A stretch of DNA of 61,925 bases, the filler included, from Coriobacteriales bacterium (lineage in GTDB: Bacteria; Actinomycetota; Coriobacteriia; Coriobacteriales; UBA8131), in NCBI GenBank assembly GCA_031263105.1. It is 5 parts of 5 records of this genome, joined end to end, with 100 filler letters (N's around TTAATTAATTAA, not from the genome) between each part and the next. Parts side by side here need not be neighbours in the genome. Positions count along the whole stretch, not along the records: positions 24,001 to 48,103 come from JAISGJ010000228.1; 4 more parts are not named here. One strand, written 5' to 3'. The translations under genes were made by a program, and so were the position numbers. The notes under the pieces were generated by a model. It saw only the letters and a list, made by a program, of their open reading frames with translations, did no database searches and was not told where the DNA came from. This document shows, one piece after another, positions 24,195 to 27,100 of the stretch. Each line of letters begins with the position of its first letter. Positions within the stretch are counted from its first letter, which is position 1.

Positions 24195-27100
24195 CTACCG
24201 GTCGTCGGCAGAGGCGTCGGGGGCGGCGTCCGGGTCCTCGATGCTGAGGCCGATGGAGCCGAGCAGCTCGTCGAGCTCGCTCGCGTCGTTCTTGTTCGCG
24301 TGCACCTGAAGCCCGCCGCCCATGCCGTCGTCGTCCGGGTCGACGCTGTAGGACAGGGGAACCTCCCCGTCCATGAACAGGTCGCTGTCCTCGGGAGAGA
24401 AGACCATCTCGAGCAGCTTGGAGACGTCGGGCTCCTCTTCCTCCTGGGGCCCTTCGAGGATATAGAGCAGGTCGCGCTCCTCGAGGCCCGCCTTCAGCTC
24501 CTCTATGGCCTTGCTGCCGATGCCCTCGATGCGCAGCAGGTCCTCCTCGGTCTTGCCGATGAGCTCCCCGACCATCTCGATGCCGACCTCCGAGAACTTG
24601 TTGGCCCAGCGCTGCGAGACGCCGAGGTCGTCGAAGAGGTACAGGCGCGCGACCTCGAGCGGTATGCCCTGTGCGCGCCGGTCGATGCCGAGTGCGCTGA
24701 AGTAGGTCGCCAGGCCATGGGGGGATCCGAGGTAGTCCTCGCCGTTGAGCGGCCACTCCACCTGTTGGGGAAGCATGCTCTCCAGCTCGCGCAGCTCGTT
24801 GGGCGCCCAGTCGGGCAGGGCCTCCATCTTGCCCTTGCGCGCCTCGAGGGGCTCGCCCTTGTAGGTGAGGTCGACTTCCCGGTAGCGCTTGAGGCCCGTG
24901 CCCGCCGGGATGGGCTTGCCGATGATGACGTTCTCCTTGAGGCCGAGCAGGTCGTCGGCCTTGCCCTCGATGGCCGCGTCCGTGAGCACCTTGGTGGTCT
25001 CCTGGAACGAGGCGGCCGAGAGGAAGGAGTCGGTCGCCAAGGACGCCTTGGTGATGCCGAGGAGCAGCGGCGAGCCGACGGGGACGTCTCCGCCCTCGAG
25101 CGCGATGCGCTCCGCCTCGCGGGAGAACTCGTAGGCATCCACCTGCTTGCCGGGCAGGTACTGGCTGTCCCCGGCGTCGATGACGGCCACCTTGCGCAGC
25201 ATCTGCCGGGCGATGACCTCGATATGCTTGTCGTTGATGTCGACGCCCTGGCTTATGTAGACGTCCTGCACCTGTTTGACGATATAGCGCAGCGTGGTGT
25301 TGGAGTCCGTCAGGCGCAGGAGGTCATGGGGGTTGATGGAGCCCTTGGTGAGCTGTTGCCCGACCTCGACCTGCACGCCGTCCACAGTGTCGGGCATGAG
25401 CTGCGCGCGCACGGAGATCTGGTACTCCCTGAAGTTGCCTTCCTTGTCGGTGATGCTCAGTATCCGCTGGGCACGGTCCCCCGAGATCTGGAGGGTGCCC
25501 GCTATCTCGGCGAGGATCGCCTGGCCCTTGGGGCGCCGCGCCTCGAACAGCTCGGTGACGCGCGGGAGGCCGTGCGTGATGTCCTCGCCCGCGACGCCGC
25601 CCGTGTGGAAGGTGCGCATCGTGAGCTGGGTGCCCGGCTCGCCGATGGACTGCGCCGCGATGATGCCGACCGCCGTCCCGATGTTGACGGGGCGCGAGGC
25701 GGCGAGGTCCCAGCCGTAGCACTTCTGGCAGACGCCGCGATGGGCATGGCAGGTCATGATCGTGCGGATGCGGACCGTCGTGAGGCCGGCGTCGAGCAGC
25801 TTCTGCACGTCGGCGAGGGAGGTCAGGTACTCGTCCTTGTCGAGGAGCACCTCGCCGGTCTGGGGATGCACGCTCGGCTCGAGCAGGCAGCGCCCGATGA
25901 GGTTGTGGTCTATCTCGCCCTTCTCGGTGAGCATCCTGTAGTCGATGCCGTCGTCCGTCCCGCAGTCGACCTCGCGGACGATGACGTCCTGCGCCACATC
26001 GACGAGGCGGCGCGTCAGGTAACCGGAGTCGGCGGTGCGCAGCGCCGTGTCGGCAAGGCCCTTGCGGGCGCCGTGCGTCGAGATGAAGTACTCGAGGACG
26101 GAGAGGCCCTCACGGAAGTTCGCCTTGATGGGGCGGTCGATGATCTCGCCTTTGGGGTCGGACATGAGGCCGCGCATGCCGGCGAGCTGGCGGATCTGCT
26201 TGATGTCGCCGCGCGCACCGGAGAAGGCCATCATGTAGATGGGGTTGAACTTGTCGAAGTTGCTCGCCATCGCCGCACCGACCTCGTCGTTCGCGGCGTT
26301 CCAGATGTCGACCACCTGGCGATGGCGCTCGTCGGCGCTCTTGAGGCCGAGGTTGTAGTCCGCGTCGATGACGGCGACCTGCCTGTCGGCCTCCGCAAGG
26401 ATCGCCTCCTTCTGAGGCGGCACCGTCGCGTCGTAGACGCTGACCGTGACGCCGGCCCGGGTCGCGTAGTGGAAGCCGATCGCCTTCAGGCCGTCGAGTA
26501 TCACGGGCATCTGGCTCACCGTGTAGCGGTTGGAGCAATCCTCCACCAGGCGCGCTATCTCCCTCTTGTTCATCTCGTAGTTCACGAAGGGATGGTCGTC
26601 CGGCAGCACATTGTTGAAGGTGATGCGGCCGATGGTGGTCTCGATGCGCTCGCCGGCCCTATGGGACTCGAAGGCGCCGTAGGCGGTCTCGACGACCGTG
26701 TCGGCGGTCAGGCGGACGACTATCCCGGCCTGCAGGTCCACGTCGGCACGCGAGTCGTAGGCGTTGAGGGCGTCGTCGAAGCTCATGAAGGTGCGGCCCT
26801 CGCCCGGGAAGCCCTCGCGGACGGCGGTGAGGTAGTACAGGCCGATGATCATGTCCTGCGTGGGCACCGCGAGCGGGCGGCCATGGGCAGGCGACTTGAT
26901 GTTGTTCGCAGAGAGCATGAGCACGCGCGCCTCGGCCTGCGCCTCGCCCGAGAGCGGGACGTGGACCGCCATCTGGTCGCCGTCGAAGTCCGCGTTGAAG
27001 GCGGTGCAGACGAGCGGATGCAGGCGGATGGCCTTGCCCTCGACGAGCACCGGCTCGAAGGCCTGGATGCCGAGGCGGTGGAGGGTGGGCGCACGGTTGA

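Follow-up and report, generated by a model that had tools for sequence, protein, structure and literature searches.

Why should the largest subunit of a bacterial RNA polymerase (RNAP) end in a domain that belongs to another subunit? The domain that ends the alpha subunit at its C-terminus (alphaCTD) is the main handle on the enzyme for bacterial activators and upstream DNA, and textbook enzymes have two copies of it, both on alpha. The question is raised by rpoC, the gene for beta', in a Coriobacteriales bacterium (NCBI GenBank assembly GCA_031263105.1), from which a stretch of 61,925 nucleotides, here termed the window, was analyzed. An earlier sequence-only reading had noticed an alphaCTD-like stretch at the C-terminus of beta' (window 24465-24645) and had supposed that the enzyme may carry a third module of this kind. 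The rpoC extension almost certainly encodes a real and selected module of alphaCTD type. The beta' that bears it is a natural and conserved long form, in which a linker of about 80 amino acids (aa) is followed by a domain of about 65 aa and an acidic tail of about 90 aa with two motifs; with two such modules on alpha and one on beta', the enzyme carries three. Profile, predicted fold, relatives and the continued presence of a CTD on the organism's own RpoA all agree on this. What the third module does is a matter of graded probability, and here contact with nucleic acid has to be weighed against the docking of proteins.

Identity and fold of the domain

The long-form rpoC (window 24195..28601, minus strand) is an open frame of 1468 aa and a stop in which Pfam finds Rpb1 domains 1-5, and it is this one minus-strand frame that contains 24465-24645, a stretch specifying residues 1320-1379. 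The last universally conserved motif of beta' is at aa 1222-1236 (24894..24938, minus strand), and the general rpoC model, TIGR02386, stops soon after, at aa 1242. The frame runs on for 232 aa beyond aa 1236, close to the 220 or so that had been estimated earlier. The stretch then singled out corresponds to aa 1322-1378 (window 24468-24638), with LFDDLGVS beginning at aa 1322, R-W-A-N at 1331-1334 and G-I-G-S-K at 1360-1364, all at the places given for them, and the E. coli string set against it is indeed MG1655 RpoA 256-312.

On the window protein the Pfam family PF03118 (RNA_pol_A_CTD) scores 33.8 bits, above its cut-off of 23.8 and at an E-value of 2.8e-8, with aa 1324-1375 covering profile positions 16-67 of 67, and it is the sole family other than those of Rpb1 to match the rpoC product at E<=1. 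The generic helix-hairpin-helix families (Pfam HHH and HHH_5) have no match in the window protein at that threshold. On two homologues from other orders PF03118 scores 32.3 and 33.5 bits and HHH_5 18.5 and 24.1 bits, the latter being under its cut-off of 27; some database homologues have been given a PF14520 tag in advance. The residues that PF03118 matches are also matched by seven NCBIfam RpoA models, through their last 55 or so positions and at scores far under their cut-offs. The domain is joined in one frame to Rpb1 domains 1-5 and not to the alpha N-terminal dimerisation domain. A genome-wide scan with PF03118 gives two matches, a complete RpoA of 313 aa (96.7 bits) and the rpoC domain (38.8 bits); as RpoA keeps its own CTD, the beta' domain is an addition to, and not a replacement for, the RpoA domain.

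Searches with the domain point the same way. When aa 1300-1385, an 86-aa query, were compared with the Protein Data Bank (PDB) by phmmer, 56 sequences matched at E<=1, and nearly all of them, including all of the best, are RNAP alpha; the top match is the B. subtilis CTD (1z3e_B, 1.8e-8), with E. coli residues 256-312 at 6.4e-4. By BLASTP, query residues 21-79 align without gaps with E. coli K-12 RpoA 254-312 (21/59 identities, 36%), which bears out the gap-free alignment that had been proposed, and the match to the organism's own RpoA has 22/55 identities (40%). AlphaFold2, given an alignment of 89 tails, models aa 1312-1381 with a per-residue confidence (pLDDT) of 84-95, most of the remainder being at 50-73. 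The predicted model is a compact fold of two helix-hairpin-helix units that superposes on solved alphaCTDs: among the matches listed by Foldseek against PDB there are only RNAP alpha chains, at probability 1.00 and a target-normalized TM score of 0.66-0.86, and isolated CTD chains superpose with a root mean square deviation of 1.2-2.0 Å over 52-62 columns. The Foldseek E-values are modest for so short a domain (5e-3 to 0.1, the best being 4.9e-3 and none <=0.001). The alphaCTD-like helix-hairpin-helix domain is at aa 1316-1380 (24462..24656, minus strand).

Layout and conservation of the extension

As the sequence-only reading had it, a linker precedes the domain and an acidic tail follows it. 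The linker, aa 1237-1315 (24657..24893, minus strand), is for the most part unstructured and belongs to no Pfam family, since a piece of 85 aa (aa 1237-1321) gives zero Pfam matches at E<=1, and its AlphaFold2 model is mostly of low confidence (pLDDT 52-84). Within it, at aa 1260-1284 (24750..24824, minus strand), is a motif, LP-x-x-AP-x-x-L-[RK]-E-x-E, in which L49, E53 and P57 (tail numbering) are invariant in the tail alignment and for which a helix is predicted at tail residues 47-55 with pLDDT of about 84. The motif is class-wide and is present also in families whose beta' has no alphaCTD-like domain.

The acidic C-terminal tail occupies aa 1381-1468 (24198..24461, minus strand). Net charge over aa 1379-1468 is -23, and an 89-aa piece has no Pfam match. 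It contains two short conserved motifs, each with a helix predicted by AlphaFold2. The first, at aa 1392-1420 (24342..24428, minus strand), consists of a short predicted helix (tail residues 172-180) and then F-S-P-[DE]-D ... G-[DE]-x-P; the second, E-L-D-x-L-L-G, is at aa 1439-1453 (24243..24287, minus strand) with its predicted helix at tail residues 219-228. Expressed as mean pairwise identity by segment within the order, conservation is 0.87 for the beta' end (aa 1222-1247), 0.69 for the linker motif, 0.39 for the variable linker (aa 1285-1314), 0.87 again for the alphaCTD-like domain (aa 1322-1378), 0.68 and 0.62 for tail motifs 1 and 2 respectively, and 0.22 for the final 15 residues (aa 1454-1468). 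By this measure the domain is under as much constraint as the end of the beta' core.

The acidic tail occurs also in relatives of the same order. In nine tails from other orders both the linker motif and the domain are retained, and there the protein ends a few residues after the domain without an acidic tail, from which it follows that the tail is not essential to the domain's role.

The neighboring large subunit also has an acidic end. The product of rpoB, a frame of 1227 codons immediately upstream whose stop overlaps the rpoC start (28598..32281, minus strand; NF001616, 1694 bits), extends about 120 aa past the point where the NCBIfam rpoB model stops (window 28598-28970, minus strand), and this part is highly acidic and rich in Asp, Glu and Ala. 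Both large subunits therefore have acidic C-terminal extensions.

With so much negative charge it is natural to ask whether the domain and tail might fold back on RNAP itself, perhaps on the DNA channel, sigma region 4 or the alpha CTDs, and serve as an autoinhibitory or assembly element after the fashion of sigma region 1.1. The net charge of the tail, the acidic extension of RpoB and the conservation of the linker helix throughout the class, whichever module comes next, are all in keeping with such an intramolecular role. The nine tails that keep the domain without an acidic tail are not, as they mean that an intramolecular role for the tail would not be general, and the proposal seems distinctly improbable.

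Distribution and database record

The source is a metagenome-assembled genome (86% complete, 6.5% contamination, 250 contigs), and the window consists of its contigs chained by N runs with a TTAATTAATTAA spacer (window 23905-24000), so that genes on either side of position 24000 are not neighbors. The contig with rpoC begins at window 24001, and only 194 bases remain between the rpoC stop and the contig end. These circumstances would suit an explanation of the extension as an artefact, whether by misassembly, a chimeric contig or read-through of a lost stop, or as a decaying relic. What relatives show is otherwise. Of 201 sampled Coriobacteriia genomes searched with the 86-aa domain query at E<=1e-7, 146 have exactly one domain match each; 132 of these matches are in uninterrupted frames of at least 1383 aa, several of them in single-contig assemblies, and the remaining 14 are in frames of 327-1121 aa that were probably cut by contig ends. 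In the same order the domain is present in 93 of 93 sampled genomes, again including several single-contig ones. In a public protein collection 2152 long proteins match aa 1290-1400. Together with a domain as conserved as the beta' end and a curated NCBI model that covers the extension, this refutes the artefact or relic reading for practical purposes, and what probability it retains is minute. A first search of the class with the whole 232-aa tail (197/201 genomes) was discarded as unspecific, since about 46 residues at the start of that query pick up any beta'.

A phylum sample of 401 genomes (including 15 flagged as unpublished, which were used for the tally only) gave matches of which the best 28 come from the class, with frames of 1463-1529 aa, and the others listed are in alpha-sized frames (310-702 aa) except for one of 1133 aa; 189 further matches lie beyond those listed. 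The exception, at G215:C67:3348-3557, is an alphaCTD-like stretch in another family of the phylum.

The sequence-only reading had suspected that domain databases may already flag this architecture, and the long form of beta' with an alphaCTD is known to them. PF03118 tags are present on 120 of 120 of the public proteins among the matches listed. The NCBIfam model NF011498 (PRK14906; 1459 positions) matches aa 1-1455 by its positions 1-1446, and its score of 2630.7 bits exceeds the cut-off of 1437; taken by itself, the 232-aa extension reaches 232.6 bits over positions 1236-1446. An older database title for PRK14906 reportedly describes a beta'/alpha domain fusion. The Protein Atlas returned only PF03118-tagged clusters, with Actinomycetota as their commonest phylum and some also tagged with a beta' domain (scores 0.80-0.87), and added nothing. 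No paper on a beta'/alphaCTD fusion was found in a literature search that left out most subscription journals, including those with the classic surveys of RNA polymerase insertions. As far as seen, what is new is the class-wide survey, a mutually exclusive zinc-knuckle form with a matching knuckle in NusA, and the differences in residues and charge from true alphaCTDs; the existence of the fusion is not new.

The module is mobile elsewhere too. A representative library of 1.84 billion proteins gave 675 domain matches at E<=1e-3, and 15 of the best 150 were scanned with Pfam. Among these 15 long matches just one is a beta' (P0262, 1552 aa). Others are proteins of about 1000-1800 aa: tandem arrays of 9-11 alphaCTD-family stretches, helicases of SNF2/ResIII type with 3-4 C-terminal copies, and proteins with the module beside sigma-70 region 4 (P0123, P0124, P0128, P0161, P0167, P0175, P0176, P0200, P0212 and P0264). 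These other carriers are separate proteins. In P0262, and in the 89 aligned fused beta' tails, the module is single-copy.

Zinc knuckles in sister families and in NusA

Several families of the class have no domain match, namely f7 (0/34), f24 (0/7), f15, f17, f18, f19, f21, f22 and f26. What stands in its place was seen in three f7 genomes, where beta' frames of 1418-1441 aa have the same linker motif and then two C-x8-C-x10-C-x2-H knuckles (L096:1756-2307, plus strand; L095:1129-1677, minus strand; L097:1756-2298, plus strand). In the one knuckle tail scanned, Pfam finds zf-TRM13_CCCH at 33.5 bits, above its cut-off of 20.9, and DUF5763 at 33.3 bits, above one of 26.3. When the count is restricted to matches at E<=1.1e-14, the twin knuckle is present in 41 of the 201 class genomes, 32 of the 41 having it in frames of at least 1285 aa. 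Thirty of the genomes are from f7, seven from f24 and one each from f15, f17, f18 and f26, and their overlap with the 146 domain genomes is zero. In one f22 genome a frame of 1393 aa matches with a single knuckle. A raw knuckle tally of 178/201 was set aside, as the knuckle also occurs class-wide in NusA-sized and smaller frames.

The organism's own NusA (448 aa; L118:487-1830, minus strand, on contig C160) has a single C-x8-C-x10-C-x2-H knuckle after the KH domains and then an acidic tail. The spacing is found in 120 of 120 NusA homologues among the matches listed, the four Cys/His positions are invariant in 70 aligned homologues, and the knuckle has no Pfam match at E<=0.1. It is similar to the knuckles that beta' carries in the sister families. 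A complex prediction with the beta' domain and the knuckle region of NusA gave a score of 0.00, but as a single job without controls it weighs neither way.

Families without the domain hold twin knuckles at the same position in the tail, a pattern in keeping with a slot that takes one small module for binding nucleic acid.

Residues, charge and the function of the module

R265 and N294 of the E. coli alphaCTD reach into the minor groove, and the phosphates are contacted by K291 and K298 (PMC7822876, PMC5101437). E. coli numbering was transferred to the beta' domain by way of the gap-free BLASTP alignment, and residues were counted over the 89 aligned beta' tails. The R265 position is Arg (R1331) in 89 of 89, the N268 position Asn (N1334) in 87, the G296 position Gly (G1362) in 89 and the K298 position Lys (K1364) in 87, so the four contact positions of which the sequence-only reading had written are kept well beyond the one genome. 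With Arg or Lys at the K291 position (1357) in 79/89, the basic positions R265, K291 and K298, which those two papers name as DNA contacts, are all retained. At the C269 position (1335) there is Lys in 88/89. Trp is found at 1332 in 88/89 tails and Asp at the D259 position in 85/89, and the S299 position is Ala in 89/89.

The main job of the module may be contact with nucleic acid, to which we give a probability slightly short of even. It would act as a flexibly tethered arm whose contact, most likely with duplex DNA near the enzyme, would be made through the retained Arg at the R265 position and the backbone-binding basic residues at the K291 and K298 positions. The beta' C-terminus, on which the arm is carried, is presumably near omega and the RNA-exit side, as in solved structures. 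Duplex DNA is favored because the basic residues of the DNA side are the best kept, because Lys has been gained at 1335 and because the knuckle is the alternative occupant of the slot. The second hairpin reads G-I-G, a generic helix-hairpin-helix form that makes backbone contacts without sequence specificity. Since it replaces the minor-groove Asn, binding is expected to be weak and with little sequence specificity, and UP elements would not be read. The motifs of the acidic tail may either damp DNA binding or recruit partners. Taken as a whole, a conserved long-form beta' with a tethered nucleic-acid arm is the best overall explanation, and our confidence in it is about evenly poised.

Several points weigh against it. 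The N294 position is Gly in 89/89 tails and the adjacent P293 position Glu in 77/89; the Asn that enters the minor groove in E. coli is thus absent from all 89 beta' tails, and the organism's own RpoA keeps it. The beta' domain has a net charge of -7 and an isoelectric point of 4.4, compared with net charges of -1 for E. coli and -2 for its own RpoA over the same 57 positions. The exchange of domain for knuckles could equally well reflect a slot for binding protein.

Acidity, the lost Asn and the Glu by the hairpin put a protein-docking role close behind. The module would then be mainly a site that recruits a regulator or elongation factor near the beta' C-terminus, much as activators, Spx or NusA use surfaces of alphaCTD, with negligible DNA contact. 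The DNA contacts that PMC7822876 names do not require W1332 or the Asp at the D259 position, both of them well kept. The two conserved motifs of the acidic tail resemble binding motifs, and among the structural matches are alphaCTDs bound to Spx, CAP, AfsR and RpaA as well as alphaCTDs in NusA-containing complexes. A site with no call for DNA would not readily account for the DNA-side basic residues being the best-kept positions or for the added Lys at 1335. Nor is the activator surface for CAP kept, as residue 1353, at the position of V287, which we take to be the centre of the CAP contact patch in E. coli, is acidic in the beta' domain. Protein docking as the main job is possible, though on balance doubtful, and the arm that contacts nucleic acid is preferred to it.

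Comparison with other systems

The beta' domain has much in common with the CTD of the alpha subunit: they share a Pfam family, a flexible linker and the residues at the R265, N268, G296 and K298 positions. It differs in being on beta', with one copy per enzyme beside the two on alpha, in having Gly, Glu and Ala at the N294, P293 and S299 positions together with its acidic charge, in the length of its linker, that of the alpha subunit being shorter than about 80 aa, and, within the order, in the acidic tail with conserved motifs that follows.

Another transcription protein that ends in a module of this fold is gamma-proteobacterial NusA, whose AR1 and AR2 are acidic helix-hairpin-helix pairs, AR2 being a binder of alphaCTD and not of DNA. 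Acidic modules of this fold can accordingly be protein binders, and the beta' domain, also an acidic double helix-hairpin-helix module, is like them in this. It is unlike them in that its best family match is alphaCTD, and the organism's own NusA has no such repeats and ends in a zinc knuckle.

Lineage-specific sequence likewise lengthens the largest subunit in beta-beta' fusions (NF007172, NF011417), and the Rpb1 CTD of eukaryotes offers an analogy, being an appendage at the C-terminus that is flexible and has short conserved motifs. In contrast to both, the Coriobacteriia extension is a folded domain borrowed from another subunit and not a set of repeats or an internal insertion. A more ambitious proposal would make the beta' tail a dedicated recruitment arm with a logic like that of the Rpb1 CTD, the class-wide linker helix anchoring interchangeable small modules (the alphaCTD-like domain in most families, twin CCCH knuckles in others) and the conserved acidic motifs following within Coriobacteriales. 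With the similar knuckle on NusA in mind, it would see here a lineage-specific coupling of RNAP, NusA and nucleic acid that replaces the link between alphaCTD and NusA AR2 in E. coli; this proposal is an unlikely one.

A third conserved copy of an alphaCTD-type module, tethered elsewhere on the enzyme, is thus present across a class of common gut bacteria that includes Eggerthella, Cryptobacterium, Senegalimassilia and Anaerotardibacter. Should it bind DNA or factors, the rules of E. coli or Bacillus would not simply carry over to the architecture and regulation of promoters in these organisms, and the class would amount to a natural experiment on the sites from which an alphaCTD is able to work.

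Neighboring genes and other candidates

Compensation involving RbpA was considered and dropped. Its family, PF13397, was not found in five of five Coriobacteriia, yet it is present in just 19 of 151 genomes of the phylum sample, so its absence from Coriobacteriia is not special.

Upstream of rpoB on the same contig is a frame of 219 aa (window 32450-33109) for which NCBIfam gives no match at E<=1e-5. Beyond it, at window 33125-36718 on the minus strand, are holA, for the delta subunit of DNA polymerase III (159 bits), and a gene for a ComEC/Rec2 competence protein (201 bits).

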